From: Vicinamibacterales bacterium
Lineage (GTDB): Bacteria; Acidobacteriota; Vicinamibacteria; Vicinamibacterales; UBA2999
Length of the DNA: 64,000 nucleotides
Direction of reading: 5' to 3'
Assembly (NCBI GenBank): GCA_036274155.1
Contig: DASUGH010000043.1
Span: 11,165-75,164 of the forward strand
The position numbers and the translations under genes were made by a program. The notes under the pieces were generated by a model, which was given only the letters and a program-made list of their open reading frames with translations, ran no database searches and was not told the origin of the DNA. Shown here in pieces: positions 5,133 through 63,505 of this stretch (positions are counted from its first letter, which is position 1; each line of letters begins with the position of its first letter).

Positions 5133-5170
5133 GTCAGCGGATCGAGAGCGGTCGGACGGCGTTCGGTGTG

Positions 5171-6669
5171 TCAATCAGGACGGACGGTGCGCAGCACCCG
5201 TTGCATCGCCGCGGGGCTGTAAACGTAGAACGTGAGGATTTCCCCCGGCTGGGCCTGCGCGATCATCCGTTTGTAGTCGCTCACCGAGCGCACGGGCCGC
5301 CGATTGATCTCGAGGAGTACGTCGTTCCGTTCGAGAGCCGCGTCGTCGGCCGGGCTGAGCGACTCGACCTTCGAGACGATCACGCCACGGAGTCCGTCCG
5401 GCAGCAGGCTGCGCGAGGCGAACTCGGGATCGAGCTCGCGAACGGAAAGTCCGAGCGCCGGCCCGGTCCAGCGCGACGGCTGCGGCTGTCCGCCACCCGC
5501 CGGCACCCCGATGGACGACTCCATGCGCGGACGCTCGGCGAGCTTCACCGGAATCGTGAGCGGGCGGTCGTCGCGCAGCACGTGCAGAGTGGCGGTCGTG
5601 CCCGGCTGCCGCGATGCGATCAGCTGAATCAGCTCGTCGCTGCCGGATACCGCCTTGCCGTCGACCGCCACGATGAGGTCGTAGGCGCGAACCCCTGCCC
5701 TCGCGCCTGGAGACCCTTCCGTGACGTCCTGCACCAGGGCGCCGTGCGACGTTCGCAGCCGCAGCGAATGCTGGAGATCGGGATCGACGTCGCGCGGCCC
5801 CACCCCGATGTAGCCGCGCGTGACGCGCCCTTTCTCGATGAGCTGCGGAAGCACGGCCGTCGCCTGGTTGATGGGCACCGCAAAGCCGATGTTCGCCGCG
5901 CGCGAGCTGATGGCCGAGTTGATGCCCACCACCTCACCGCGCGTGTTGATCAGCGGACCGCCGCTGTTGCCGAAATTGATGGCCGCGTCCGTCTGGATGT
6001 AGCGGTCGAGCGATCGGTTGAACAGCTTCCGTCCCATGAAGCTCACGATGCCCACGGTGACCGTGTGCTCGTAGGCGAGCGGATTCCCGATGGCCACCAC
6101 CCACTCGCCAACACGCAATGTATCGGAGTCGCCGAGCGGTGCGAACGGCAGAGGCTCCGGCGAATCGACCTTGAGGAGGGCGAGATCGCTGTCCGGGTCG
6201 ATGCCGACACGCTGCGCCCGCAGGCTCCGTCCGTCCGCCAGTCGCACCGTGATGCGGTCCGCGGGCTCGACGACGTGCTGATTGGTGAGAATGTGACCTT
6301 CGGCGTCGATGAGAAAGCCGGTTCCGGCACCGCGCCGCAGATCGTCAGGGCTGCGGTCCGGCGGCCGTTCGAACGGGTTGGGTCTGTCGAAGAGCTCGGC
6401 AAAAGGGCGGCGCCGGCTGCTCGACTCGCCCCGCGACGTGGCATCGATGTTCACCACAGCAGGATTGAGTCGCTCCGCAACGTCGGCAAACGAGGCGAGG
6501 GCCGGAGCGGCAGCGCCGACGCTTCGCGTGGGAATCGCCCGGGCCGCACGCGGAGCGGAAATCGCTGGTGCCGGCGTGAGCGAGCCAGCGATCACGAGCC
6601 CGAGCAGGAGCCCGACCGTGGCGCTCAGGCAGACGATCGCGGCGAGAAACCGCCGTGACATGAAGTCCA

Positions 6670-6670
<1 letters not shown>
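5171..6670 (-). CDS. HtrA/DegP-family serine protease with two PDZ domains
   Basis: TNQHV (His), DSDLALLK (Asp), AINFGNSGGPL (Ser), N-terminal TM segment, two PDZ repeats. Confidence 0.93.
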
Positions 6671-8838
<2,168 letters not shown>

Positions 8839-45857: not shown

Positions 45858-47769
45858 CGTCGTTCTCCACCGGCCGAAGCACGACGGCCGCCTGGCCGGG
45901 AATGCGCCATCCCGAGGCGCTCACGACATCAGCGGTGCCCGTGCCTCCGTAGTCCGGGTGTTCGCTCGACCAGCGCAGCTCCCACCTCGAACCGCGAGGC
46001 GGAGCGATCAGCGGCTCGACGAGCGAGGCGGCGACGATCTCGGGCCCGAGGTTGACGATCAGCACGCGCTCGTCGCTCTGCGTCTCGCCCGTGAATCGCA
46101 GCACGAGCGCTTCCGGGTCGAGGACCGCGCCGTCGACGAGGCCTCGACGCTGTGAATGAAACGCCGCATCGCTGCGACGCAACGCGATGAGCTCGCGATG
46201 CAGCCTCCAGTGCGGGCTGTCGTCGCTCATCTCCTCCCAGCGCAGCTTGCACCGTTCGAAGGTCTCGGGGCTTTCGGGTGCTGGCAGCCGGGTTCGCATC
46301 TCCGCCGACGCGAGGCTCGGAAACTGCGCCAGGAACTCGCCGCGCCCCTTTCGGACCGCAGCGGCGAGCTCCGGCTTGTGGTCCGCAAAGAACAGGAACG
46401 GTGACGAAGCGCCGAACTCCTGACCCTGGAAGAGCATCGGCGTTCCCGGCATCAGCAGAAGAAGCGCGGTCATCGCACGGTATCGTCCCTCCGCCGTCAA
46501 CAAACGGAGCCGCGTGCCGTCGCCGGAGTTCGCCACCTGGTCGTGGTTCTCGAGAAAGGCGACGAACGCCGCCGGCGTGATCCCGTCGGTCCGACTGCCG
46601 CGGGCCTTTCCCTGCCACGCGTATCTCTGCCCCTGGAAGAGGAATCCGTATTTGGCGGCCGACACGAATTCCTGCGGCCTTCCCCTGAAGTCGGCGTAGT
46701 AGGCTTCCCGGCGTCCGGTCAACGCCACGAACGCGCTGTGATGAAAATCGTCGTTCCACATCGCGTCGAGGCCGTGACCTCCGAGCGCAATCGGCGTCAC
46801 CATCGTCACGTCCTGTGGCTCGTTCTCCGAGACGAGCAACACGCTGCGATCGACGGCAGCGGCACGCGCCTTCGTGGAGATCACCCTGACGATGTGCTCC
46901 TCCGAGCGATCCGCGATGGTTTGCGTGGCATCGAGTCGCAGGCCGTCGAGGTGATACTCCGCGATCCAGTACGATGCGTTGCAGGCGAAGTACTCCCGGA
47001 CCGGACCGGACGCCGGACCATCGAAATTGAGCTCGTCGCCCCATTCCGTCTTGCCCTGACGGGTGAAGTAATCCTGTGAGAACGTGTGGTGCACCGCCCC
47101 GTCGGGCCCCAGATGGTTGTAGACGACGTCGAGAATTACGCCGAGACCGAGCGCATGCGCGCGATCGACGAAGAACCGGAAGTCGTCTGGCGTCCCGTAG
47201 AGACGGGTCGGCGCGTACAAAAGGACGCCGTCGTAGCCCCAGCCGAAGCGGCCGGGAAACTCCGCCACCGGCATCAGCTCCACGAGCGAGATCCCGGTGT
47301 TCGCCAGGTGCGGCAACCGCTCTGCGGCAGACCGCCACGTGCCGGTCTGCGTGAACGTTCCGATGTGCAGCTCATAGACGACCTGGCCGTGGAGTTGCGC
47401 CCCGCGCCACCCCGCGTCCGACCACTGATACCGTGCCGGGTCGACGACCTGCGAGGGACCGAATGGGCCGTCTGGCTGGTAGCGCGATGCCGGGTCGGCG
47501 AACAACGAGCCGTCGAGGCGGTAGCGATAACGGGCACCGTCGCCGACCTGCGCGACTCGAACCGACCGATAGCCGTCGCCTTCCGCTTCGAGCGGAAACT
47601 CCCGATCGACTGCGCCTTCCTTGTCGAGCACGAGAGACACGCTGGACGGACGAGGAGCCCACACTCGAAAGTGCGTCGACCCGTCAGGCTGGGCTTCCGC
47701 TCCGACGGGCAATCGACGGATGACGGCAGTATCGGCTGTGGACTTCGCTGCCTCGACGCGGCTCATCAT
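45835..47769 (-). CDS. treZ: Malto-oligosyltrehalose trehalohydrolase (GH13)
   Basis: FRVWAP, YELHIGTF, WGYDGV, DVVYNH, DGLRLDA, WNDDFHH, NHDQVAN, LFQGQE. Confidence 0.88.
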   Translation of the reverse strand: MMSRVEAAKSTADTAVIRRLPVGAEAQPDGSTHFRVWAPRPSSVSLVLDKEGAVDREFPLEAEGDGYRSVRVAQVGDGARYRYRLDGSLFADPASRYQPDGPFGPSQVVDPARYQWSDAGWRGAQLHGQVVYELHIGTFTQTGTWRSAAERLPHLANTGISLVELMPVAEFPGRFGWGYDGVLLYAPTRLYGTPDDFRFFVDRAHALGLGVILDVVYNHLGPDGAVHHTFSQDYFTRQGKTEWGDELNFDGPASGPVREYFACNASYWIAEYHLDGLRLDATQTIADRSEEHIVRVISTKARAAAVDRSVLLVSENEPQDVTMVTPIALGGHGLDAMWNDDFHHSAFVALTGRREAYYADFRGRPQEFVSAAKYGFLFQGQRYAWQGKARGSRTDGITPAAFVAFLENHDQVANSGDGTRLRLLTAEGRYRAMTALLLLMPGTPMLFQGQEFGASSPFLFFADHKPELAAAVRKGRGEFLAQFPSLASAEMRTRLPAPESPETFERCKLRWEEMSDDSPHWRLHRELIALRRSDAAFHSQRRGLVDGAVLDPEALVLRFTGETQSDERVLIVNLGPEIVAASLVEPLIAPPRGSRWELRWSSEHPDYGGTGTADVVSASGWRIPGQAAVVLRPVENDDGGARAI

Positions 47770-49619: not shown

Positions 49620-50225
49620 CTACACGCCGCCGCGCTGGCTCGCTGGAGGCGTCACTCCGTTCAGGCGCAGATACACGACGAGCTGACCGTAAATATCCTC
49701 CGTGTGCTGCAGGTCGTAGTAGAACACCTTCACGCGGCTCGCTGAGGACCCGAGGAACGGCGGCGGCGTGACGCGCTCGACCAGCTGCTGATCGTTGAAC
49801 TCTTTCAGCACCGCCGCCTGCCAGTCGTACGACTGCTTCAACGCCGCGAGGATGTCGGCCTTCGTCGTGGCCTTCTGATTGATCGTTGGAGCGGCAGTCT
49901 TCCCACCGAGGGAGTTGAACAGGAAGCCGTCCACGGTCACGATGTGCATCACGCGCTCGCCGAAACTCTGCTGAGCCGGCGTCGGCTTGAAGCCGAACTT
50001 GTCCTCGGGCATTGCGTTGACGAGGTTGACGATCAGCTCTCTGGTGCGATCGAGATCCGACTGCACGTCACCAGCCAGCGTCGTGATTGGCGGCCCTTGT
50101 GGGCCGCGCCCCGCCCCGCCGCCCGACCTGCCCTGCCCGCGGCCGTCCTGGGGCGCGGCGAACGCACCCTGTGCAGCGGCCAGCAATACTGTCACGCCGA
50201 GGAACATGGTGACGACACGGTGCAT
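49620..50225 (-). CDS. DinB/YfiT family protein with signal peptide
   Basis: AMPEDKFGFKPTP, SFGERVMH, YGQLVVYLRLNGVTPPAS. Confidence 0.85.
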   Translation of the reverse strand: MHRVVTMFLGVTVLLAAAQGAFAAPQDGRGQGRSGGGAGRGPQGPPITTLAGDVQSDLDRTRELIVNLVNAMPEDKFGFKPTPAQQSFGERVMHIVTVDGFLFNSLGGKTAAPTINQKATTKADILAALKQSYDWQAAVLKEFNDQQLVERVTPPPFLGSSASRVKVFYYDLQHTEDIYGQLVVYLRLNGVTPPASQRGGV

Positions 50226-50273
50226 ACGATCCTCCTGACTCGAACTGGGCACCAACCGGGGTGCCCACGAGAT

Positions 50274-51011
50274 TTACAACTCCGCCTGCAGCTGACGCAG
50301 CAGTACTTGCCAGTGGCGCTCGGAAGCCTCGTGCTCATAGACGGGGTGGCCGGTCACCGCAAAACCATGTCTGGCGCCTTCGTAGCGCTCGAACATGTAC
50401 TGCACGCCGGCATCGTCGAGCGCGCGCTTGAGCCGCGCTTCCTGTTCGGTGGTGAACGAGGGGTCGATCCCGGCCGCACCCACATAGATGCGCCCTCGCA
50501 TCTTTGCGGCCAGAAGGTGCGGACTGTCGGGCTTGTCAGTGGCGAGGCCTCCTCCGTGAAACGACGCTGCCGTCACGACACGTTCGGGAAATGTACCGGC
50601 AGCGCTCAAGGCGAAGCCGCCACCCATGCAGTAGCCGACGGCGGCGGTCGGACCCGGCCGCACGAACGGCAGCCGATCGAGCGCCTCGAGCACCGACGCC
50701 GTGTCGCGCATCACCTTCGTATCGGAGATCGACGCAATCATCCCTTTGAACCGATCGCGCTCGGGCCCTTCCGTGAAGACCTTCGAGCTGTCGAACGGCG
50801 CATAGGAGCCGCTGCGGTAGTAGAGATTGGGAATGGCAACGACGAAGCCGTGCGAGGCGAGGCGCTCAGCCATCGAGGCGAGCGCGGGGCGGACGCCGAA
50901 GGCGTCCATATAGAAGAGGACCGGCGGCCAGGGCCCGTCACCGTTCGGTCTGAATACGTGACAGTCGATGACGCCGTCCTGGGTGGTGACGTCAATCCGT
51001 GCCTGAACCAT
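50274..51011 (-). CDS. Dienelactone hydrolase family protein
   Basis: YMDAFGVR, VGYCMGG nucleophile, SFHGG, HGFAV. Confidence 0.92.
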   Translation of the reverse strand: MVQARIDVTTQDGVIDCHVFRPNGDGPWPPVLFYMDAFGVRPALASMAERLASHGFVVAIPNLYYRSGSYAPFDSSKVFTEGPERDRFKGMIASISDTKVMRDTASVLEALDRLPFVRPGPTAAVGYCMGGGFALSAAGTFPERVVTAASFHGGGLATDKPDSPHLLAAKMRGRIYVGAAGIDPSFTTEQEARLKRALDDAGVQYMFERYEGARHGFAVTGHPVYEHEASERHWQVLLRQLQAEL

Positions 51012-51029
51012 CGGCCCTCGACGCCGCCC

Positions 51030-51347
51030 CTACCAGCGCGGTTCGCGCTTCCGGTCGCCCCCGCGGCCGCCGCCACCTCCGCCGCCGAAACTGCGAGCCG
51101 GCTGCGGCCGGGCTTCATTCACCGTCAGATTCCGGCCGCCAAACGGACGGTCGTGCAGCTTGTCGATCGCGTTCTGCGCATCCGCCTCGGTGGCCATCTC
51201 CACGAACGCAAACCCGCGCGCGCGTCCTGTCTCCCGGTCGCGCATGACGCTGATCGACGCGACGGAGCCCACCTCGCCGAAAAGCCCCTGGAGATCGTCC
51301 TCGGTGGCCTCATAAGGAAGATTGCCAACGTAGAGCTTTCGATTCAT
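51030..51347 (-). CDS. RRM-domain RNA-binding protein with Gly-rich tail
   Basis: RNP2 LYVGNL, RNP1 RGFAFVEM, LTVNEARP, GGGGGGG; start at MNRK. Confidence 0.94.
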   Translation of the reverse strand: MNRKLYVGNLPYEATEDDLQGLFGEVGSVASISVMRDRETGRARGFAFVEMATEADAQNAIDKLHDRPFGGRNLTVNEARPQPARSFGGGGGGGRGGDRKREPRW

Positions 51348-51510
51348 CTCTCGACTCCTGCCGCACCCCTCGAAGGGTGGCAAAGGAAACCGGCCCGAGC
51401 CGGATTGCTCGGCCCGACGCGCAGGAGAATCGAGGCTGTCGAATCTGATGCGTAGCAGGGAGGGCTCAGCTTCCGGAAGGTGTGCGAGTGTAACACACAC
51501 GGCCAAATGG

Positions 51511-53034
51511 TCATCGCGACTTCAGAAACTGCCGGACCACCTCGGCGGCGTCGCGATGGTCGACATCCACGGCGCGATTCATCGTGCGCATCTCAGCGGC
51601 GCTCACCTGTCCTCCGAGCGCCTCGAGCGCCTGTCGCACTTCTGGACGCCGCAGCAGCGTCGCCGTGCGCGCCACCGCAACCGCATCGTAGGGCGGGAAG
51701 TAGCCGCGATCGTCGGCCAGCACGGCCAGATCGAGCGCGGCGATCATCGCGCTGGTCGCATCGCCGGCGACGACGTCGACCTCGCCTGATGCCAGCGCAC
51801 GGTACATGAGCGCAAGATCCATCACCCGCGGGTCGCGGGCGAAGCTGAGCCCATAGGCGGCCGCCAGACCGCGATACCCGTCCTGCCGTTCCACGAACTC
51901 GAACCCGAACCCGGGCTGCCACCGCTGCTGCACCTGCTTCAGATCGCCGATGCTCCTCAGGCCGAGCGACTCGGCATCGGCGCGCCGCACCAGAATCGCG
52001 AACGTGTTGTCAAAGCCGAGCGGCTCGAGGACGGTCACACCGCCTTCGGCGTAACGCCGTCGAGTTCGCTCGAGCACACTGCCGCGGTCGTGTCCGACCG
52101 TCTCGTGAAAGACCGCGGTAAGGGCAGTGCCGGTGTACTCGGGATACACGTCGATGTCGCCTGAGCGGAGGGCGCGATCGCAGATGAACGTCCCGCCGAG
52201 ATTCAGCCGTCGCGTGACCACGATGCCTCTGGCTTCGAGACTCTGTGCGAACAGCTCGCCGAGAATGATCTGTTCGGTGAAGTTCTTCGATCCGACGACG
52301 ATCGCGTCCGGCGCCGAGCGCATCGACAGGCCGCCGAACGCGACCGCGATCACGGTGAGTGCAGAGGCGGTGACCAGCACTCGGCGCCGCGAGGCGCGGT
52401 GACGCGAGGGGCGCAGCGTACGCTCGACCCACGTGAGCAGCAGGTCGGCCGCCACGGCGAGAAGCGCCGCCGGGACCGCTCCGGCCAGGATGACCGTGGA
52501 GTCGACCATCGACAGCCCTCGAAAGATGTACTCCCCGAGCCCGCCGGCGCCGATCGCCGCGGCGATCGTCGCCGTGCCGACGCCCACCACGGTGGCGACC
52601 CTGATGCCAGCGAGGATTGACGGCAGCGCCAGCGGCAATTCGACGAGCCACAACAGCTGACGGTTCGTCATGCCCATCGCAGTCGCGGCGGTCACGACGC
52701 CCGCATCCACAGTGGTGATGCCGGCAATCGTTCCCCGGACAATGGGCAGCAGTGCGTACAGGATGAGCGCCAGGATCGCCACTCGTGAGCCGATGCCGCC
52801 GATGAACGGGAGCGGCAGCAGAAACCCGAGCAGCGCCAGGCTTGGAACCGTCTGCGCCACGTTCGCGAAGGCGACGAGCGGTTTTCCGATTCGCGGCCGG
52901 TGCGCGGCGAGGATGCCGATTGGCACGCCGAGCGCGATTGCCGCGCCGCTCGAAAGGACGACGAGCACGACGTGCCGTTCGATCATGGCCCACAGTTCGG
53001 ACGCGTGCGCCTGCCAGAAGCGGAGCAAGGTCAT
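51511..53034 (-). CDS. Osmoprotectant (glycine betaine/choline) ABC transporter, permease fused to substrate-binding domain
   Basis: QTVPSLALLG, ATAMGM, IGAGGLG, VGSKNFTEQ, YPEYTGT, FPPYDA. Confidence 0.93.
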   Translation of the reverse strand: MTLLRFWQAHASELWAMIERHVVLVVLSSGAAIALGVPIGILAAHRPRIGKPLVAFANVAQTVPSLALLGFLLPLPFIGGIGSRVAILALILYALLPIVRGTIAGITTVDAGVVTAATAMGMTNRQLLWLVELPLALPSILAGIRVATVVGVGTATIAAAIGAGGLGEYIFRGLSMVDSTVILAGAVPAALLAVAADLLLTWVERTLRPSRHRASRRRVLVTASALTVIAVAFGGLSMRSAPDAIVVGSKNFTEQIILGELFAQSLEARGIVVTRRLNLGGTFICDRALRSGDIDVYPEYTGTALTAVFHETVGHDRGSVLERTRRRYAEGGVTVLEPLGFDNTFAILVRRADAESLGLRSIGDLKQVQQRWQPGFGFEFVERQDGYRGLAAAYGLSFARDPRVMDLALMYRALASGEVDVVAGDATSAMIAALDLAVLADDRGYFPPYDAVAVARTATLLRRPEVRQALEALGGQVSAAEMRTMNRAVDVDHRDAAEVVRQFLKSR

Positions 53035-53036
53035 CG

Positions 53037-53780
53037 TCAGCCTGCGGTCGTTGGCGTGCGGACGGGCTCGAGGAACCGGCGCACGCGCGCGTCGGTCGCG
53101 CGCAGGACGGCCGCCGGCGTATCGCAGATGATCAGTGCGCCATCGTCCAGTATGCCGACGCGCGTGCCGAGGGCTGTGGCTTCGGCGATGTCGTGGGTGA
53201 CGAGAAGAACGGTTTGACGAAGCTCCTGCTGGATCCGCGAGAAGGCCCGCTGCAGCTCACGTCTGGTCACCGGATCCAGGGCGCCGAACGGCTCGTCCAT
53301 CAACAGCACGGGCGGGTTGATCGCCAGCGCCCGTGCCACGCCGACTCGCTGCTGCTGCCCGCCCGAAAGTTCGCTCGGCCAGCGGTGCGCGTAGTCGTCC
53401 GGTGCGAGACCGACGAGCTGGAGCAACTCGCGGGCACGTGCCTCGCGGCGCGGCACGGCCCACCCTTCGAGTCGCGGCACGAGGCCGATGTTCTCCTGGA
53501 CCGTCAAGTGCGGAAAGAGCCCGATGCTCTGGAGCACGTATCCCGTACGGCGTCGAAGCTGAATCGGGTCCCATTCCCGCGTGTCGCGCCCATCCACCAG
53601 CACCGAGCCCTGCTGCGGGATGAGCATGCGGTTCACGAGCTTGAGCAGCGTGCTCTTCCCGGCCCCGCTTCGTCCCACCAGAGCCAGGGCTTCGCCCCGT
53701 CCGACTGACAGAGTGAGATCGGCGAGTGCCCGGCGGTCGCCGTAGGCGCAGGTCACACCCCGAAATTCGACCAGACTCAT
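53037..53780 (-). CDS. Osmoprotectant ABC transporter ATP-binding subunit
   Basis: GRSGAGKST, LSGGQQQRVGVARAL, LMDEPFGALDP, VTHD. Confidence 0.93.
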   Translation of the reverse strand: MSLVEFRGVTCAYGDRRALADLTLSVGRGEALALVGRSGAGKSTLLKLVNRMLIPQQGSVLVDGRDTREWDPIQLRRRTGYVLQSIGLFPHLTVQENIGLVPRLEGWAVPRREARARELLQLVGLAPDDYAHRWPSELSGGQQQRVGVARALAINPPVLLMDEPFGALDPVTRRELQRAFSRIQQELRQTVLLVTHDIAEATALGTRVGILDDGALIICDTPAAVLRATDARVRRFLEPVRTPTTAG

Positions 53781-54074
53781 GCGCTCGGCCTGCAGCCTGT
53801 TGAGGTGCACCAGGTGATTGCGCGCCGGCCGGTCGTCATTCGTGGATTGTGCATTGGCCCGAACGCAATGCCAAGCCGCGGACGATCGGACGTCACATCG
53901 TTTTTGCCGGGGACCCGCGACAGTTCATCCGCTGCGGAGTATCCTGTCCATCGGGATGTGTCCCTCACGTCCCTGAAGAGTCGGGTGATGCTCGTCCGGC
54001 GGCGAACGTCTCCGCGTGCCACCTCGTCCGTCGGGCCCCGGTTGCGCCAGCCAAGGCGGGGGTAGGTCCGCCAT

Positions 54075-55361
54075 ATGCACGGAGCTGACAACACGTCGAT
54101 GCACCCACGGCTGTCCCGCGAAACGCGCCGGCTGTTGACCGCTGCTACGGTCGCGCTGGTCGCGCTGTGGGTGCTGGCACGAGTCCGGTTCCCCGATCGT
54201 CCGGTCACGCCCAATCCGATATCGCCGCTCCTCACACAGCTCGCCGCGCGGCCGGCATTCAACGATCTCGCCGCCGAGATCGGACAGCTGCGGACGTTGA
54301 TTGCACCGTCGGTGGTGATGCTTCCGGAAACCGATACCGAGAATGCCACCGGCCGGCCCCGCGTCGGCGTGCGACTCAGCGCCGATGCCGCCGTCACGTA
54401 TCTCCAGCCGGGGGAACGTCGCGGCGATCCGATCGGGCTCGATCTCGTGGCGCTCGACAGGGTGACCGGGCTTGCGGTCGTGCGTGTCATGAGCGCGCGG
54501 CAGGATCAGGCGCCGGTGCCATGGTCTCCCGTCCGTACCGACACGCCGAAATATCTTGCCGCTACCGAGCCCTGGCACGACGGCGTCTCGCTGAGTCCGC
54601 TGTTCGTGAGCCGGTTTCCCCCGATTACAGCCTCCGGATGGTCCGGACCAATCTGGCAGCTGCCATCGGCCGTCGAATTCCCCAGCGGGACATTCCTGTT
54701 CACGCCGGACGGCGAGCTCGCCGGACTGATCGTCCGTGAAACCGGCGCTGCTGGAATCGTCCCGGGCGAGATGATCCTGGCGGACGCCGAACGGCTCGTC
54801 GCGCAGCGCAACGTCGTTCCCGGTGAGCTCGGCGTCTCGGTGCGATCGCTCACGCCCGCTCTCGCCGCGGCCACCGGTGCCGAGGCCGGAGTCGTCGTCG
54901 CCTGGGTCAACGCGCGCAGCAGCGCCGCGGCTCACCTCGCCGTCGGTGACGTGATCGAAGGCTTCAACGATTCGCCGGTGAAGACGCTGAGAGACTGGGA
55001 AGTGCGAAGCGGCCGTCTCGCCGTCGGCGATGTCGTCGAGCTCTCGGTGCGGCGGATGGGAGAGGTCCGCCGCGTCAAGCTGACGGCGGCGGCACCGCCG
55101 GTGTCGGAGCAACGGGCGCTTGGGCTCACGCTGCGATGGGTGCCAGGCGTCGGCTCGGAAGTGGTGCGTGTGGAAAACTCATCGGCGGCTGCAGTGGCCG
55201 GGGTGGCGAGGGGCGACTTCATCACCTCGATCGGTTCGTCGAAGACACCGACGCCGGCAACCGTCCGCGAGGTGTTCGACGAGGCGCGTGAGGGGCAGCC
55301 GATTGTGCTCGGACTCAGCCGGGGCGACGCTCACGACGTGGTGGCGCTGACCAAACGATGA
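54075..55361 (+). CDS. Membrane-anchored PDZ protein with degenerate HtrA-like protease domain; alternative start at 54099
   Basis: N-terminal TM; DRVTGLAVV and GTFLFTPDGELAGL resemble HtrA segments; two PDZ-like repeats (SSAAAHLAVGDVI, SAAAVAGVARGDFI). Confidence 0.7.
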   Translation: MHGADNTSMHPRLSRETRRLLTAATVALVALWVLARVRFPDRPVTPNPISPLLTQLAARPAFNDLAAEIGQLRTLIAPSVVMLPETDTENATGRPRVGVRLSADAAVTYLQPGERRGDPIGLDLVALDRVTGLAVVRVMSARQDQAPVPWSPVRTDTPKYLAATEPWHDGVSLSPLFVSRFPPITASGWSGPIWQLPSAVEFPSGTFLFTPDGELAGLIVRETGAAGIVPGEMILADAERLVAQRNVVPGELGVSVRSLTPALAAATGAEAGVVVAWVNARSSAAAHLAVGDVIEGFNDSPVKTLRDWEVRSGRLAVGDVVELSVRRMGEVRRVKLTAAAPPVSEQRALGLTLRWVPGVGSEVVRVENSSAAAVAGVARGDFITSIGSSKTPTPATVREVFDEAREGQPIVLGLSRGDAHDVVALTKR

Positions 55362-56530
55362 CCGCCTCCGTCACCGAAAAGGACACTGCATCCGCCAGCG
55401 ATCGCCTTGGCCTCGAGCTGGGGCGGTCAGGCCCGCACACGGCCCGGGCGCGGGCCGTCCCGTGGCACGTTCGGCTCGGTCTCAGCTGGTCGTCCGGGTC
55501 GCCACCTGTCGTCCTGCTGCTCCTCATCGGCATGGCGCTCGGTCCGCAGGCGCTCGCAATCCTGTCGCCGGCCGTGCTCTCGGCTATCGACCCGGCGCTT
55601 CCTGTTGCGCTCGCGACACTCGGCGTGCAGGTCGCTCTGGAGCTCCCCTTGCGGCGTTCGGCGCTCGATCCGCGTCTGGCACGCGCGGCGTGCGTAGAGG
55701 CGGTGTTCACCGGCGTCACGGTCACGGGTGGAGCGCTGCTCGTCCTCGCGCCGGACGTCGCGCTTCCCGGCGCGGACGTGTGGCTCATCGCGATCGCCGC
55801 AGGCATCTGCGCCGCGATGTCCGCCGGCCTGCCGTCCGACACCGCCGGGGTGACCGCCGCGGCCGCCGGAGTGCGGCAACTCGACGTCGTCCTGCCGGCG
55901 TTCGCGGGTGGAATCATGCTGGCCTGGGTTCGAGAGCAGGCGATTGGTCCAGCGCTGTTGCTCGCGGCGCAGGCCGTTCTCCTCGCGCTCGTGATCGGCG
56001 TCTCGGCATGGCTGCTCCTCGTGCGAACATCTTCGGAGACCGAGCAGCGCATCTTCGGCGCCTCCGCGCTGCTCCTGCTCGGCGGCCTCGCCGACTATCT
56101 CTCACTGTCGGCATTGCTGAGCGGCCTCGTGGCGGGCACGTTCTGGCGGCTGATCGGAGGTCAGGCGGCTGACGCGATCAGGCGCGACAGCGGGCACGTT
56201 CAGCACCCGCTGCTCGTGTTCCTGCTGGTCGTCGCGGGTGCACGCAGCGCAGTGTCGACTCCCGTCCTGGGCCTCATCGCCGCGTATCCGATCCTGCGTA
56301 CGCTCGGCAAGCTCGCGGGCGCCTGGCTGGCCCGTCGAGTGACGAAGCCAGCGCTCCCGGACGATCTGGGTCTGGCACTCGTCGCGCCCGGCGTCTTCGG
56401 CATCGCGTTCAGCGTGAACGTCGTTCGCGCCGCAGGCCCCGTGTCCGATCCGCTCCTGGCTGCCGTCGTGATCGGCAGCATCGTGTCGCAGCTCATTCCG
56501 TTCCGGCGGCCGCAGGAGCCTGGCCCGTGA
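55358..56530 (+). CDS. Cation/proton antiporter (CPA)-like polytopic membrane protein
   Basis: LLLIGMALGP, LSALLSGLVAG, RTLGKLAG, about 11-12 hydrophobic segments; ATGA overlap with the upstream gene. Confidence 0.7.
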   Translation: MTASVTEKDTASASDRLGLELGRSGPHTARARAVPWHVRLGLSWSSGSPPVVLLLLIGMALGPQALAILSPAVLSAIDPALPVALATLGVQVALELPLRRSALDPRLARAACVEAVFTGVTVTGGALLVLAPDVALPGADVWLIAIAAGICAAMSAGLPSDTAGVTAAAAGVRQLDVVLPAFAGGIMLAWVREQAIGPALLLAAQAVLLALVIGVSAWLLLVRTSSETEQRIFGASALLLLGGLADYLSLSALLSGLVAGTFWRLIGGQAADAIRRDSGHVQHPLLVFLLVVAGARSAVSTPVLGLIAAYPILRTLGKLAGAWLARRVTKPALPDDLGLALVAPGVFGIAFSVNVVRAAGPVSDPLLAAVVIGSIVSQLIPFRRPQEPGP

Positions 56531-59289
56531 GGCGGCTCGCCGCACTGCTGCTCGCCGTCATCGCGATTCTGTGGGCACAAGGCCTCGGTTCGACGACGAG
56601 CGCCGGATCGGCTGGCACAGCGCTGGCAATCGGCTTCACACTGCTCGGCGCCTGGGTCGCTGGCGACGTGTTGCGCCGCCTGCAGCTTCCCCGTCTGACC
56701 GGCTACCTGCTCTTTGGCGTGCTCGTCGGCCCGTATCTCGGCAACGTGATCACCGAGTCGATGGCAGGGCAGCTCCAGGTCATTACGGGAATCGCCACGA
56801 CGCTCATTGCCCTGATCGCGGGGTTGACGCTCAACATCGAGCGGCTCGGCCGGCAGCTGAAGGCGATCGCCCGGTTGACGGCAATCATCCTTGGCGTCTC
56901 GATGTTCGGCCTCGGTGTGCTCGCCTGGATTCTCTGGCCGTGGCTTCCACTGGCTCCCGAGGCGACCGGCTGGGAGCGTCTCGTCATCGTCGTCCTGCTC
57001 GCGGTCATCGCCGTGAGCTTCTCGCCGACGATGGCCGCAGCCGTGACGACCGAGACCAGTGCGCGAGGCCGCCTCAGCGAGCTCGTGCTGCCGGTGGTCG
57101 TCCTGGCGGATCTGGCGTTGCTCTTCCTCTTCTCGCTGGCGATGCAGTTCAGCAGGGCCGTTCTGAGCAGCGGTCCCGACGAGGGCGTCGGAACCCTGGT
57201 GCGCTTCGCGTGGGAGATTGGCGGAGCCGTGGCATTCGGCAGCCTCGTCGGCGCCCTCTTTGCTCTGTATCTGCGATACATCGGACGTGAAGTCACCGTC
57301 GCGATCATCGCCGTGTGCGCCATCCTCAGCCAGGTGGGGACGACGCAGGAGTTCGAGCCGTTGCTGGCGGCCGTGGCCGCCGGGCTCGTCATCGAAAATC
57401 TTTCGATCTCACAGGGAGACGCCCTCAAGACCGCGGTCCAGCGTGGCGCAACACCGGTCCTCGTCATCTTCTTCGTCGCCGTCGGCACGTCCCTTCGTCT
57501 CGACGCGCTGGAAGTCGTCGGCTTCGCAGCCCTCGTCTTGTCGGCGATTCGTCTGGCACTCATCCGGCTGGGGATCGCCCTCGGGATTCGCGTCTCCGGC
57601 CTCGAACCGGATGCCGGACGATATTTGTGGACGGGATTGATCTCGCAGGCCGGGATCACGCTGGGCTTCGCGTCGGTTGTCGCCGCAGAGTTCGTCACCT
57701 GGGGTCCACGGTTTCAGACACTGCTCGTCGCGTTGATCGCCATTCACGAGATGACGGGGCCACTGCTTTTCCGCTATGGCCTGGCGCGCAGCGGTGAGCT
57801 CGACCCAAAGGTACCCCGGCCGCTCGTCGTGGTCTCGAATCGCGAGCCGTACCTGCATACACGCCGCCCGACCGGGCAGATCGTGGCGTCGCCGGCGCCC
57901 GGCGGGGTGGCTGTCGCGCTCGACGCGCTGATGCGGGAACGTGGCGGCGTATGGGTGGCGCACGGCGCCGGTCCGGCGGATCGTCTTGTCGTGGACGCCG
58001 GCGACAAGGTCAGGGTTCCACCCGAACATCCGTCATACGAGTTGCGCCGGCTCTGGCTCGAAGAGCCAACCTTCTCAGCGTATTACAACGGTTTTGCCAA
58101 CGAAGGCTTGTGGCCGCTATGCCATCTGGTCGACATTCGTCCGCAATTCCGGGCTGAGGACTGGGCCGCCTACAAGGAGATCAACGATCGCTTCGCCGCG
58201 GCCGTCGATGAGGAGATCGGCACCTCGAACCCGGCCGTCTTCATTCAGGATTATCACCTGGCGCTCGTAGCGCCGGCGCTCCGCAGCCGGCGCCCTGCTG
58301 CACGCACCGCCCTCTTCTGGCACATTCCGTGGCCATACCCTGATCGCCTCCGCATCTGCCCGTGGTCGCGCGAGCTTCTCGCCGGTCTGCTCTCGAACGA
58401 CCTGCTGGCGTTTCAGCTCGAGCGCGATCGCCGTCACTTTCTCCTGGCGGTGGAGGACGAGCTCGGCGCCGAGGTCGAGCCGGAGTCGTCCCGCGTGCGA
58501 TTTGGCGATCGCTACAGCACGGTCATTTCCGTTCCGATTGGCGTGGACTACGATCGGATCCAGGCCATTGCCGCCGATCCGGCACTGGCTGTCGAACAGG
58601 ATCGGCTGCGGCAGCTGTTCGATCTGCGCGCCGACATCGTTGGGATTGGCGTCGACCGTCTGGATTACACGAAGGGCATACCCGAGCGCCTGGCCGCGCT
58701 CGACGAGGTGCTTCGCCGCCGTCCGCAGCTGCGCGGGCACATTACGTTCGTGCAGATTGGCGTGCCGTCGCGCTCGTCGCTCGGCAGCTACTCCGCCATC
58801 GAATCGGAGATCGATCAGCGCATCGCCGAGCTCAACGCGCGCCACTCGGCGGGCCCGGGCTCACCGCCCGTCGTGCGATATCACAAGGTGCCGCTGACGA
58901 TTGGCAGCCTCGTGGCGCTCTACCGGATGGCCGACTTCTGCATCGTCAGCTCGCTGCACGACGGGATGAATCTGGTTGCCAAGGAATTCGTGGCCGCACG
59001 AGACGACGAGGACGGAGTGCTGGTCCTCAGCGCGCTGGCCGGTGCGGCGCAGGAGCTGACCGAAGCGCTCATCATCAACCCTTACGACGTCGAAGGCTTT
59101 GCCGACGCACTCATGGCCGCGATCGACATGGCGCCCGAGGGGCGGCGGGCGCGCATGCGTGCGATGCGGCGCGTGGTCGCCGGACGTAACGTCTTCGGCT
59201 GGGCGTCTGACATCCTGGAAGGCCTCGAGAGCCTCTGGACGAAGCCGCTGCACTACTCGGTCCGCCACTGGGAGGAAATGTCGGTGTGA
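56527..59289 (+). CDS. otsA: Fusion of a CPA-like transporter domain (aa ~1-425) and trehalose-6-phosphate synthase (GT20)
   Basis: N-terminal [23 protein letters not shown]; C-terminal [54 protein letters not shown]. Confidence 0.9.
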
Positions 59290-60092
59290 CGCGTACGCGG
59301 AATATTCTGGCCAACCGAAACCTGTCGGTTCTTTCTACATTTGCTGCTTCGAACGTGCTGCTGGCGTTCGATTACGACGGAACTCTGGCGCCGATCGCGG
59401 CGGCGCCGCGGCTGGCGCGCATGCGGGCCCACACACGGCGGCTCCTCGTGCGCGTCTCGCGGGTCTATCCGTGCGTCGTCATCTCCGGACGCACGCTGTC
59501 CGACATTTCACGGAGGGTGAAGCGCATTCCCCTCTGCTATGTCTTCGGGAATCACGGGCTCGAACCGCTCGACGAGAAGGGACCGTCGGCGCCAGCCACA
59601 GCCGAATGGCTGCGCCGGCTGCGCGAACAGCTTCCCGATCACCCGGGCGTGGTCATCGAAGACAAGAAACACACCGTGACCATTCACTACCGGGCGGCCC
59701 GTGATCGCGGCCGCGCGATCGAAGCCATCGGCGAGGTCGTCGACAAATTGCCGGGAGCGAGGGTCGTCGGCGGCGTGGAAGCGGTGAACCTCCTGCCCCG
59801 CCACGGCCCGCACAAGGGCGCTGCGCTGCAGCGCGCCTTACGGCTGTTCGGTTGCACGACCGCGATTTATGTGGGTGACGATGCGACCGACGAGGACGCG
59901 TTCGGCGCCGTCGCCGCCGATCGAATCCTCGGCATCCGGATCGGCTCCGCCCAGGCGTCCCAGGCGCGTTACCATCTCGCAGCGCAGGACGACATCGACA
60001 CGTTCCTCAGGACGCTGCTCACGCTGAGGCCGTCGCGGCGCCTCGATCTCAAAGGCGGATGTGCGGCGAGCGCCGACCGCGCCCGGCCATAG
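59286..60092 (+). CDS. otsB: Trehalose-6-phosphate phosphatase (HAD)
   Basis: FDYDGTLAPI, ISGR, GNHGLE, IHYR, YVGDDATDEDAF. Confidence 0.93.
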   Translation: MTRTRNILANRNLSVLSTFAASNVLLAFDYDGTLAPIAAAPRLARMRAHTRRLLVRVSRVYPCVVISGRTLSDISRRVKRIPLCYVFGNHGLEPLDEKGPSAPATAEWLRRLREQLPDHPGVVIEDKKHTVTIHYRAARDRGRAIEAIGEVVDKLPGARVVGGVEAVNLLPRHGPHKGAALQRALRLFGCTTAIYVGDDATDEDAFGAVAADRILGIRIGSAQASQARYHLAAQDDIDTFLRTLLTLRPSRRLDLKGGCAASADRARP

Positions 60093-60101
60093 ACCGGACG
60101 C

Positions 60102-60938
60102 TCATTTCGGCACGGTAGCGGACGCCGCCGACACACTGCTTGACGAACCGTTCGGCAGGGCGTGAACGTCGGCGTCCGCTCCCCAGAGCTGTCGGATTCG
60201 TGCTATCGCCTCGCCCGAACCGCTCGTCCAGAAGGTTTCGCGGCCAGTCCGTTCGCCTTCGGCCAGCAGGCCTGCGCTCTCGAGACGCCGTTTCAACTCG
60301 CGGGCAACCGGCGCCGCCGGATCGATGAGGGTGACGTTCGGGCCGGCGATGTCCTGGATGAGCGGCCTGAGGAAGGCGTAGTGCGTGCAGCCGAGGACGA
60401 GCGTGTCCGCACCTTTGGCCAGCAGCGGCTGCACGTAACCTTCCAGCAACGTTCGCGTCTTCGTCGCCTGCAGCTCGCCCTGCTCGACCTGATCGACCAG
60501 GCCGGGGCACGGCTGGATCAGGACCTGGGCCCGCGCCCCGTGCTCGTCGACCAACTTCAGGAAGTTGGCGCTCGAGAGCGTCTGCGTCGTGGCAAGCACG
60601 CCGACGATCCCGCTGCGGGTGGTCGTGGCGGCCGGCTTCACTGCCGGCTCCATCGCCACGATCGGGAAGGTGAACCGACTGCGCAGCGTCCTCACCGCAA
60701 CCCCCGTCGCCGTGTTGCACGCCACGACCAGCGCTTTCACCCCGTGGTCGCACAGGAACTCGACAATGGCAATCGATCGCCGCTCGATGAAGTCGCGCGG
60801 TCGATCGCCGTACGGCGCGTTGCCCGAGTCGGCGACGTAGATCACGTCCTCCGACGGCAGCGCCTGCCGGATGGCGCGAAGGACCGACAGGCCGCCCACG
60901 CCGGAATCGAATACGCCAATCGGGCGAGGGCTGCTCAC
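60102..60938 (-). CDS. murI: Glutamate racemase
   Basis: FDSGVGGLSV, PYG, VACNTA, VLAT, LGCTHY. Confidence 0.96.
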   Translation of the reverse strand: MSSPRPIGVFDSGVGGLSVLRAIRQALPSEDVIYVADSGNAPYGDRPRDFIERRSIAIVEFLCDHGVKALVVACNTATGVAVRTLRSRFTFPIVAMEPAVKPAATTTRSGIVGVLATTQTLSSANFLKLVDEHGARAQVLIQPCPGLVDQVEQGELQATKTRTLLEGYVQPLLAKGADTLVLGCTHYAFLRPLIQDIAGPNVTLIDPAAPVARELKRRLESAGLLAEGERTGRETFWTSGSGEAIARIRQLWGADADVHALPNGSSSSVSAASATVPK

Positions 60939-61021: not shown

Positions 61022-63505
61022 CTAAAGCTGCACACGGCGTAGCCGCAATGCGTTCCCGATCACAGATACGGAGCTCAACGTCATGGCGGCGCTGGCAATC
61101 ATCGGACTCAGCAGCAGACCAGTGAACGGGTAGAGCACTCCTGCCGCAACAGGCACGCCGAGCGTGTTGTACACGAACGCGAAGAACAGATTCTGTCGCA
61201 CGTTGCTCATGGTCGCACGGCTGAGACGCCTGGCACGTACGATGCCGCGCAGATCGCCTTTGACCAGCGTGACCCCTGCGCTTTCCATTGCCACGTCGGT
61301 ACCGGTGCCCATGGCGATCCCGACGTCGGCCTGCGCGAGCGCCGGAGCGTCGTTGATGCCATCGCCGGCCATGGCGACTCGCTGCCCCTCGCGTTGAATC
61401 GACTTGACGACTTCCGCTTTCTCGCCTGGCAGGACGCCCGCCCGCACGTCGTCGATGCCGACGCGGCCGGCCACGGCCTTCGCGGTCACCTCGGTATCAC
61501 CGGTGACCATCAGAATCCGCAGCCCCTCGCGATGAAGCGAGTCGATGGCCTCCGGCGTCGTGTCTTTCACAGGATCGGCAACCGACAGGAACCCGGCCAG
61601 CGATCCGTCGATGGCCACGTACGCGACCGTCTGGCCCTGCGCTCGCAGCTTGTCCCCCTCCGACGTGACGCTCGACACGGCGACGCCATGCTCTGACAGC
61701 TGCGCGGCGTTGCCGATGACGACTCGATGCCCGGCCACGACCCCTGAGACGCCGGTTCCCGTGTGCGATTGGAAGTCCGAGACGGGAAAGAGGGAAAGCT
61801 TTCGCTCTCCGGCTCCCGCGACGATTGCCGCGGCGAGCGGGTGCTCGCTGACCTGCTCGACGCTCGCGGCATAGCGCAGAAGGTCGGCTTCCGGAATCCC
61901 GGACGTCGGGGTCACGGTCATCAAACGCGGTTTGCCCTGGGTGAGCGTTCCCGTCTTGTCGACAATGAGCGTCGACACACGCTCGGTCACTTCCAGTGCT
62001 TCGGCGTCACGAAACAGCACGCCCGCCTCGGCGCCGCGCCCGGTGCCGACCATGATCGACATCGGCGTCGCCAGCCCGAGCGCACAGGGACAGGCGATGA
62101 TCAAAACCGCAACGGCGTTGACGAGCGCGTGCGCCAGCCGCGGCTCGGGGCCGAACAGACCCCAGGCCGCCGCCGTCAGAACCGCGACGACGATAACCGC
62201 CGGCACGAACCAGGCCGACACGCGATCGGCGAGACGCTGAATGGGCGCGCGCGATCGCTGCGCCTGGCTGACCTGCCGGACGATCTGCGCGAGCAGCGTG
62301 TCGGCGCCGACGCGACGCGCCTCCATCACGAAGGCGCCTGTCCCGTTCACGGTGCCGCCGGTCACGAGGCTCTGAGCCGAGACAGACACCGGCATCCCCT
62401 CCCCGGTGACCATCGACTCGTCGACACTGCTCGAGCCGTCGACCACGATGCCGTCGACCGGAATCCGTTCGCCCGGCCTGACCCGGAGCCGGTCGCCGAC
62501 CCGGACGGTTGCGAGCGGGACCTCCTCCTCGACGCCTCCTGCCCCTACCCGCCTCGCAACCGTCGGAGCGAGTGCAAGGAGGGAGCGAATGGCCGCACTC
62601 GTGCGGCTCCGGGCACGCAGCTCCAGTACCTGTCCGAAGAGGACGAGCACGACGATGACAGCCGCTGGCTCGAAGTAGACAGGCACTACACCGTGCTGGC
62701 GGAGCGAGGCCGGCAAGGCCCATGGGATGAGCGTGACGACCACGCTGTAGACATATGCCGTTCCGACGCCCAACCCGATGAGCGTGAACATGTTCAGGTG
62801 CCGGTTGACGACCGAGGTCCAGGCGCGCACGAAAAACGGCCAACCGCCCCACAGCACCACAGGTGAGGTCAGGGCAAGCTGCGTCCACCTGAGGATGTCC
62901 GGCGTGACGCTCCGGTGCACGAGGTCTCCTGGCAGCAGCTCGCTGACCATCACCAGCAACAGCGGCGCCGTCAGGAACAGCGACAGCCGGAAGCGGTGCG
63001 TCATGTCGTCGAGCTCAGGATTACGGTCTTCGAGCGTCACCGTGCGCGGCTCGAGGGCCATGCCGCAAATCGGACACGCACCTGGGGAGTCGCGGACGAC
63101 TTCCGGATGCATCGGACAGGTCCATTCGGTCCGGGTCAGCGGCTCGGCGACGACCGGCTCGAGCGCCATCCCGCACTTCGGGCACGCGCCCGGGCCCTGC
63201 TGACGGACCTCGGGGTCCATCGGGCACGTGTAATCGGCCGGAGAGGCGGCTCGTGTGGGGGCCGGCGGAGCCACGGCTGCCGGGACATCATGAGTCGCGC
63301 CGTGGCCCGTCGCGGGGCGTTCCCGCTGAAGGCGAATCGGGCTGGCCTGGGCAGCCGGTTTCAACGCGAACGACGCCGGATTGGCATCGAACTTCGCACG
63401 GCAGCCTTCGCAGCAGAAGTAGTACGTCGTCCCCTGCCACTCGCTGGTGGCTTTTGCTTTCTGCGGGTCCACCTGCATCCCGCACACAACGTCACGTTCC
63501 ATCAC
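61022..63505 (-). CDS. copA: Cu(I)/Ag-translocating P1B-type ATPase with N-terminal YHS and heavy-metal-binding (YTCPMHP-type) domains
   Basis: DVVCGM...[47 protein letters not shown] and MTLSS Cu(I) motifs. Confidence 0.93.

Follow-up and report, generated by a model that had tools for sequence, protein, structure and literature searches.

The DNA considered here, referred to as the window, is a stretch of 64,000 nucleotides from a Vicinamibacterales bacterium of the phylum Acidobacteriota (GenBank assembly GCA_036274155.1, contig DASUGH010000043.1, positions 11,165 to 75,164 of the forward strand). Between positions 54,075 and 60,092 of the window lies an operon of four genes, P0001 to P0004, in which a membrane protein of the cation/proton antiporter (CPA) type is fused to the trehalose-6-phosphate synthase OtsA. 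The fused gene is preceded by genes for an HtrA-fold protein with PDZ domains and for a second, strongly diverged CPA-fold protein, and is followed by otsB. The features of the locus are as follows.

54075..55361, + strand: P0001, 428 aa, with an N-terminal transmembrane (TM) helix (approximately residues 15-38), an HtrA-fold domain without the catalytic triad, and PDZ domains at approximately residues 245-336 and 350-426
55358..56530, + strand: P0002 (CPA-B), 390 aa, a divergent CPA-fold membrane protein
56527..57801, + strand: P0003 residues 1-425 (CPA-A), a CPA2-like Na_H_Exchanger domain with S166-P167-T168, A194-D195, R342 and S373-Q374..T378
57802..57822, + strand: P0003 residues 426-432, a very short linker from the last membrane-domain helix to the first OtsA strand
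57823..59229, + strand: P0003 residues 433-901, the OtsA (GT20) domain
59230..59289, + strand: P0003 residues 902-920 and stop, a conserved C-terminal tail ending in WEEMSV
59286..60092, + strand: P0004, 268 aa, OtsB, the trehalose-6-phosphate phosphatase
53811..54074, no strand assigned: a divergent intergenic region of 264 bp between an opuA-like ATPase gene and P0001, the presumed promoter region

The preliminary description of this DNA had reported four + strand genes, each overlapping the next by 4 bp, and this arrangement is found at every junction, through ATGA at 55358, GTGA at 56527 and GTGA at 59286. The start of P0002 overlaps the stop of P0001 through the ATGA, the whole P0003 open reading frame (ORF) occupies 56527-59289 of the + strand in the ORF list, and its final codon, GTG, doubles as the start of otsB. 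Purine-rich, Shine-Dalgarno-like stretches of the AGGAG/GGGAGGA kind lie 5' of both GTG starts. The anatomy of P0003 and the overlaps thus bear out the membrane-tethered OtsA and the translational coupling that had been proposed. No consensus promoter was found on the + strand of the intergenic region, where a promoter/terminator scan gave nothing above shuffles. Contigs from four other metagenome runs tile positions 54000-60200 with 0-2 differences and 0 indels, and span all three gene junctions as well as the joint between the CPA and OtsA domains. Because these independent contigs bridge the junctions and the joint without indels, the CPA::OtsA fusion is real DNA and not an assembly artefact.

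The best 120 database matches of P0003 (P0005-P0124) measure approximately 797-939 aa, with 112 of them carrying both PF00999 and PF00982, and their NCBI names are Vicinamibacterales or Acidobacteria. Mean identity to P0003 across these 120 fused proteins is 69.7% in the membrane half and 77.8% in the OtsA half. The membrane half matches Na_H_Exchanger (PF00999) at residues 39-395 (E 3e-22), its 79.4 bits exceeding the cut-off of 26.2. D195, S166-P167-T168, R342, S373, Q374, G376 and T378 are each present in all 120 fused proteins. D195, which follows the first broken helix, is a conserved candidate for the ion-binding Asp and would correspond to D156 of KefC, an equivalence drawn from motif spacing and the Pfam match and not from structural superposition. 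A competing placement, an ND motif at R180-G181 in the alignment to MjNhaP1, was rejected because it falls in the unreliable last part of a local alignment, and the spacing within P0003 and the invariance of D195 were preferred. In KefC the K+ site is described as comprising Q155, D156, T127, the S125 carbonyl and S336, with K307 nearby (PMC11150392).

The glutathione-gated K+/H+ exchangers KefC and KefB, of the CPA2 group, are the closest parallel to this architecture. As described, they share with the CPA proteins of the operon the NhaA/NapA-type 13-TM fold and a conserved Asp in the helix that follows the first broken one, and they carry a cytoplasmic α/β domain of nucleotide-binding type directly after the last TM helix, the place occupied by OtsA in P0003 (PMC11150392). 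The domain itself is different, being RCK/KTN at the C-terminus of KefC and KefB and a complete glycosyltransferase in P0003. Pfam and NCBIfam report no domain of the TrkA/RCK family in P0003, with GT20 as its C-terminal domain. KefC is also described as working as a dimer (PMC11150392), whereas P0003 seems to be paired in the membrane with a highly divergent paralog and not with another copy of itself.

The OtsA domain is complete. Its match to Glyco_transf_20 (PF00982) at residues 433-901 (E 9e-107, 358.1 bits, cut-off 32.5) covers profile positions 3-472 of 473, and it aligns end to end with the solved OtsA 5jij (E 7e-77). Against the TIGR02400 equivalog it scores 402.5 bits, below the cut-off of 564.85, and is a divergent member that automatic naming would not assign to the equivalog. 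The OtsA motifs that were checked, DGMNLVAKE among them, include the residues presumed to be catalytic; they are retained in 118-120 of the 120 fused proteins and align with the solved enzymes. P0004 scores 108.4 bits against TIGR00685, above the cut-off of 68.05, and matches Trehalose_PPase (PF02358) with an E of 5.6e-25. Together with the PF00999 and PF00982 matches, these results confirm the earlier reading of a CPA-like::OtsA fusion followed by OtsB. In the genome that carries the operon (86% complete), one GT20 match and one Trehalose_PPase match were detected, and both lie within the operon; nine genomes with the fused gene gave just that one match to P0003. As these sole matches lie in the operon, the motifs are invariant and otsB is translationally coupled, catalysis by OtsA is, from the sequences compared, clearly under selection.

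The linker between the CPA and OtsA domains, approximately 7 residues, is constant in length across the fused clade. The tail that follows OtsA (window 59230-59286) takes the form [WPS]-E-[DE]-x-[SPA]-V across the 120 fused proteins, the last residue being V in 109 and I in 9, and it is kept at four loci where otsB does not overlap (L011, L022, L050, L056). It could be a PDZ ligand or could reflect constraint from the ribosome-binding site and start of otsB. The PDZ-ligand idea was set aside, with P0001 probably periplasmic, a relative of P0001 present without the tail at one locus (L024), and part of the tail encoding the otsB ribosome-binding site and start.

P0002 had been called CPA-like, which is right despite the lack of any Pfam match. 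At an E of 0.1 Pfam returns nothing for P0002, none of 62 family members matches Na_H_Exchanger (PF00999), and a profile search against PDB sequences found no solved relative. The family is of modest size, with 428 representatives at E ≤0.001 among 1.84 billion. Direct comparison of P0002 with P0003 by BLASTP was tried and found nothing (best E 0.37), and profiles were required. With hhalign, the P0002 family matched the P0003 CPA domain and ten homologs over 299 columns (probability 96.4%, E 1.4e-9), and the P0002 family HMM cross-matches CPA-A ORFs at E 1e-5 to 2e-14. The AF2 model of P0002 (pLDDT 88.1, pTM 0.86) finds SOS1, SLC9C1, NapA, NHE1/3/9, NHA2, MjNhaP1 and KefC by Foldseek (TMq 0.55-0.66, E down to 7.6e-6). 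P0002 thus has the NhaA/NapA-type fold and profile-level homology and falls within no curated CPA sequence family. Based on the profile match, the cross-matches and the fold matches of its model, it is assigned as a strongly diverged CPA paralog. In the hhalign register P0002 lacks the first TM helix of its partner and starts at the equivalent of the second TM helix of P0003, after an N-terminal extension of approximately 45 residues that is poorly modelled. Among the 62 family members S155 is conserved in 60, D176 as 47 D and 5 E, E229 in 58, R314 in 61, and the K318 position as 46 K and 7 R. Judged by these residues and the invariant ones of P0003, both subunits look transport-competent, while the ion itself is not readable from sequence.

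By fold and sequence P0001 is a pseudoprotease of the HtrA type, anchored by a TM helix at its N-terminus. Its predicted model (pLDDT 88.5) matches DegQ/DegP/HtrA by Foldseek over approximately 400 columns (E 3.5e-22), and Pfam finds PDZ_2, PDZ and PDZ_6 matches in two PDZ regions. Its match to TIGR02037, the DegP/HtrA profile, is weak and falls on the C-terminal half of that profile, with 68.7 bits, below the cut-off of 416.2. Like DegS, DegP and DegQ of the HtrA (S1C) proteases, it has the fold and the domain order protease-PDZ1-PDZ2, and it shares an N-terminal membrane anchor with DegS. Unlike them, it has no conserved His/Asp/Ser triad and no Pfam trypsin match, and its gene is dedicated to a transporter operon. 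Among the 39 members of the P0001 family, no column of residues 45-240 holds His in at least 20%, and the column of DegP Ser210 is Ser in P0001 itself, but Ser in only 4 and Pro in 21 members. Gly132 occupies the alignment position of the catalytic Asp in P0001, as judged by eye, and none of the 120 P0001 relatives among the matches listed has the trypsin Pfam domain. The absence of a conserved triad argues that P0001 is not an HtrA protease, and the preliminary call of a TM-anchored degenerate HtrA/PDZ protein agrees with the fold match, the PDZ hits and the lost triad. The HtrA family is usually located in the periplasm. Taking this together with the variable N-terminal tails before the helix, the body of P0001 is likely to be periplasmic as well.

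The fused form is widespread among close relatives and confined to the order in the genomes sampled. Of 41 related genomes, 19 gave a match crossing the CPA/OtsA joint: 15 of the 25 from the genus, and 4 of the 16 that represent other families of the order. In G026, G016, G020 and G004, which are among the 19, the match is split into at least two pieces, one of them crossing the joint. For a further genome, G003, the match consists solely of frameshifted fragments abutting at the joint. When the phylum was sampled evenly, with two candidates scored per genome and two unpublished genomes (G086, G189) included in the tally, the fused form occurred in 5 of 25 Vicinamibacterales genomes and in none of 276 elsewhere. 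At the 16 fused loci that were fetched, the P0002 gene is always directly upstream and P0001 is present in 15 (absent in L023). Twelve of them have otsB immediately behind the fused gene and one (L022) has it on the upstream side; the flanks fetched for the other three (L011, L023, L056) contain no otsB. All four genes stand in the order P0001-P0002-P0003-P0004 in 12 of the 16, P0001 being cut by a contig end in two of these, and the 4-base overlaps recur in relatives (e.g. L017, L018). The proposal of a new system had been made to depend on the four-gene set occurring in other genomes, and it is conserved in many. Across the order, fused or not, the P0002 gene adjoins the CPA-A gene at 23 of 24 loci.

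The same membrane proteins also occur in unfused form. Seven loci of the order (L025, L026, L029, L030, L047, L048, L049) carry relatives of P0001 and P0002 followed by a CPA-A gene that ends where OtsA would begin. At L027 the CPA gene is alone. One genome, G032, holds both kinds. Its first locus has the P0002 relative and CPA::OtsA without P0001 or otsB; at the second, otsB (Trehalose_PPase E 5.7e-34) is divergent from an unfused P0001-P0002-CPA-A operon. This second locus is a link to trehalose beyond the fusion. As a separate observation, in the genome whose CPA-A homolog stands alone at L027, a further locus (L028, G038:C3:832000-843000) has a P0001 homolog divergent to an unfused, soluble OtsA ortholog of 63% identity at 3793-6988, with no CPA genes. 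In two families of the order a VitK2_biosynth gene (menaquinone via futalosine) lies beside the unfused operon (L026:704-1534, L029:1570-3348).

Outside the order, 16 loci were fetched for the CPA-A homolog alone, and a P0002-like ORF, detected with the P0002-family HMM, lies beside CPA-A in 10 of them. Genes for PTS_EIIA_2 (PtsN-like) and small PII-like proteins flank the cluster in 12 of the 16 (L031-L045). Examples are found at the following positions.

L032:2905-3785: PTS_EIIA_2/PII-like genes
L043:4299-5116: PTS_EIIA_2/PII-like genes
L033:7655-8623: PTS_EIIA_2 and PII-like, fused at this locus in one protein of 322 aa

At the 30 loci fetched from the order (L011-L030, L047-L056) such genes are missing throughout, as they are in the window. 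The cluster of EIIA, PII-like protein and CPA pair looks like a regulated transporter cluster that is apparently undescribed. The link to PtsN-like and PII-like regulators elsewhere in the phylum had escaped the preliminary description, as had the age of the CPA pair, which, on the distribution and phylogeny of the sequences, predates the fusion. No P0002-like ORF was detected at four loci of one family, f37 (L036, L037, L038, L040), and these are not counted as CPA pairs. At two of them, L040:4316-5371 (351 aa) and L037:2925-4130 (longest ORF 401 aa), a polytopic ORF takes the place of the P0002-like gene between the PII-like gene and CPA-A. The L040 ORF, the only one compared, is not linked to the P0002 family by hhalign (probability 0.8%, E 0.07).

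Phylogenetic analysis of the CPA-A domain places the order in a single clade (support 100/98), within which 16 of the 17 fused copies group together (96/86). The 17th, from G028, is a long unresolved branch, which leaves the tree compatible with a single fusion event. The distribution points to a history of three steps. A CPA pair regulated by EIIA and PII-like proteins would have come first; Vicinamibacterales would then have lost those regulators and gained the PDZ pseudoprotease, after which one lineage would have fused OtsA to CPA-A, followed by otsB. A known parallel to the regulated stage is YcgO (CvrA), a K+/H+ antiporter of E. coli, which is a CPA exchanger under the control of a PTS_EIIA_2 protein, the same kind that flanks the acidobacterial pair; its description states that unphosphorylated PtsN inhibits it (PMC11808508). 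YcgO differs in being a CPA1 protein with its own CorC/RCK tail and no adjacent ptsN, and the Vicinamibacterales locus itself has no EIIA or PII.

Whether P0002 and P0003 form a heterodimer was addressed by complex prediction. The resulting ipSAE of 0.59 (runs 0.55, 0.59, 0.61; best control 0.00) is graded 'weak support'. Passes at or below 0.60 are mostly wrong, except where the pairing was already likely on other grounds. In the underlying benchmark the mark was reached by 58 of 80 solved complexes and 2 of 110 mismatched pairs, of which only 7 of the 80 and both mismatches lay at or below 0.60. At least 81% of contacts were common to the runs, and partner pLDDT was at least 70. The heterodimeric antiporter-fold module of the preliminary description is upheld as two CPA-fold proteins encoded in tandem, and the dimer itself receives weak support from this prediction. 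Since the genes are tandem, overlapping and widely conserved and the prediction points the same way, we infer that P0002 and residues 1-425 of P0003 most likely act jointly as a regulated exchanger of monovalent cations for protons, probably in the form of a heterodimer. The ion would be K+ or Na+ against H+, and K+/H+ is the leading guess because the neighbours elsewhere are PtsN-like and unphosphorylated PtsN inhibits the K+/H+ antiporter YcgO.

The larger subunit would bear a predicted catalytically competent OtsA on its cytoplasmic C-terminus, through the short linker and at the position of RCK in Kef, with OtsB translationally coupled downstream. P0001 would act as a periplasmic sensor or scaffold in place of the cytoplasmic PtsN-like and PII-like regulators. 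The ion status of the exchanger and trehalose synthesis would be linked allosterically, such that cation extrusion and compatible-solute accumulation proceed together upon drying or osmotic upshift. E. coli OtsA is stimulated by K+, and K+-glutamate is replaced by trehalose. In an enterobacterial model, K+-glutamate is described as a secondary signal for osmoprotectant accumulation (PMC3827549). Taken whole, a heteromeric cation/proton exchanger physically coupled to trehalose synthesis, with the PDZ pseudoprotease as regulator, is given slightly less than an even chance. A stricter form would be an osmolyte-swap machine in which the elevator cycle of the exchanger is allosterically locked to the open/closed cycle of the glycosyltransferase, so that K+ would leave and trehalose would be made in lockstep as the cell dries, with a PDZ pseudoprotease in the periplasm sensing the state of the envelope and exerting control. 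This is a speculative extension and is considered improbable. If true, neither an enzyme-coupled CPA transporter nor an obligate CPA heterodimer would have been known before it.

Several observations weigh against coupling of an exchanger to trehalose synthesis. Six of the seven unfused operons have no adjacent trehalose gene, and five genomes of the order have stand-alone OtsA orthologs (60-66% identity) that neighbour neither CPA nor PDZ genes. As these close orthologs stand alone, the enzyme does not need the membrane part. The genome also has TreS and TreY, and trehalose does not depend on the operon alone. On the transporter side, P0003 scores 50.7 bits against the CPA2 subfamily profile TIGR00932, under the cut-off of 238.3, and its CPA domain is the weakest of eight PF00999 matches in the genome, at 82.8 bits compared to 121-197 for six others. 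With this score and no RCK domain, the exchanger is not Kef-type as far as sequence classification goes. The motif at the candidate ion site is AD, and neither the QD of KefC nor the DD that NapA is reported to have in its place (PMC11150392). Arg clusters lie on both sides of the P0001 TM helix, making its topology ambiguous by charge. The complex score may owe something to solved CPA homodimers known to the predictor. No single-chain fusion of both CPA paralogs turned up when longer proteins with a P0002-like domain were searched for, which is weak evidence. Finally, the glycine-betaine transporter adjoining the operon was dropped as supporting context, its adjacency being absent in the relatives L011-L030.

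An unlikely alternative is that the degenerate CPA-fold proteins serve only as a membrane anchor and transport no ion. Trehalose-6-phosphate or trehalose would then be made at the inner face for local membrane protection in drying, or would feed an exporter, glycolipid or exopolysaccharide pathway. The very short linker, which puts the OtsA active site at the membrane, fits this, as do the blindness of Pfam to P0002 and the position of the P0003 domain at the bottom of the genome's PF00999 matches, far under the CPA2 cut-off. It is weakened by the ion-site Asp, the Ser/Thr of the broken helix and the TM Arg, invariant in all 120 fused proteins and largely kept in the P0002 family, because a mere anchor would not need such residues. 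The pair is moreover found without OtsA across the phylum, beside regulators typical of ion transporters.

The position of OtsA, exactly that of the RCK domain in the KefC description (PMC11150392), raises the converse possibility, that the enzyme is chiefly a ligand-sensing gate. Its two Rossmann-like halves would open and close on UDP-glucose, glucose-6-phosphate or trehalose-6-phosphate and gate the exchanger as RCK does in KefC, with trehalose secondary. In favour of this, OtsA appears within the order where the EIIA/PII regulators have been lost. The invariant motifs, the coupled OtsB and the status of these genes as the only OtsA and OtsB detected in the genome instead put catalysis under selection, and this reading is rather doubtful, though gating and catalysis are not mutually exclusive. 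Equally doubtful is a fusion and operon of convenience that merely co-expresses stress genes for ion homeostasis, an envelope PDZ protein and trehalose synthesis with independent domains, which would suit the unfused, unlinked OtsA orthologs of five genomes, the common unfused operons and the splitting of the parts over two loci in G032, but not a stable fusion whose CPA domains fall in one clade in 16 of 17 cases, whose halves are both well conserved, and whose short, length-conserved linker leaves little freedom for independent action.

In SbtA-SbtB the gated transporter belongs to the wider CPA/AT fold class and the gating protein is PII-like, and in NHE3-NHERF a tandem-PDZ protein regulates a Na+/H+ exchanger. 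SbtB and NHERF are found in the cytoplasm and have no sequence relationship to the operon's proteins; both are analogies only. The TPSP-GT-MSC operon of Thermoproteus tenax is described as combining trehalose-6-phosphate synthase/phosphatase genes with an osmotically responsive membrane protein, for which a joint stress response is proposed (PMC3634074). That system uses a separately encoded mechanosensitive channel, a TPS-TPP fusion and a glycosyltransferase activator, and has neither an antiporter fold nor a PDZ protein (PMC3634074). Literature searches, whose coverage left out most subscription journals, found no paper on a CPA::OtsA fusion, on paired paralogs or on an EIIA-PII-CPA cluster. 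The view that the architecture is undescribed holds insofar as no describing paper was found, but the fused protein is common in databases and some copies already carry the JGI label 'trehalose-6-phosphate synthase/Kef-type K+ transport system membrane component'. Every part of the operon belongs to a known fold family. What is new is an enzyme at the position of a CPA regulatory domain, together with what is probably a CPA heteromer and with a PDZ pseudoprotease specific to the operon.

Vicinamibacterales are common and abundant soil bacteria. Trehalose is reported as a main osmolyte in drying soils (PMC11245096). In the enterobacterial model an early accumulation of K+ is later replaced by compatible solutes, and the coordination of ion efflux with solute synthesis is described as unsettled (PMC3827549). 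An exchanger fold physically joined to OtsA would make this coordination directly testable. A metabolic enzyme would also join the list of cytoplasmic domains carried by CPA transporters, and strongly diverged pairs of CPA paralogs would represent a likely heteromeric type of transporter. The pair flanked by PtsN-like and PII-like genes in other Acidobacteriota offers a second, independent system for studying regulation.

Several further genes surround the operon in the window. Approximately 7 kb upstream, a weak match to N-terminal TreS/TreY profiles at about 47104-47385 (G000:C43:58268-58549, - strand) lies in an open frame of 655 aa, which is probably another gene of the GH13 α-amylase family. 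A 503-aa ORF at 49944-51455 (+) has no Pfam family at E 0.001. The operon is divergently adjoined by an OpuA-type glycine-betaine ABC transporter at 51511-53810 (-), consisting of a 507-aa permease-OpuAC fusion and a 257-aa ATPase, which places another osmoprotectant system beside it. Downstream, a convergent gene of the Asp/Glu racemase family at 60102-60938 (-) lies 9 bp past the otsB stop, followed by a heavy-metal P-type ATPase with YHS and HMBD domains at 61022-63505 (-), also convergent with the operon.

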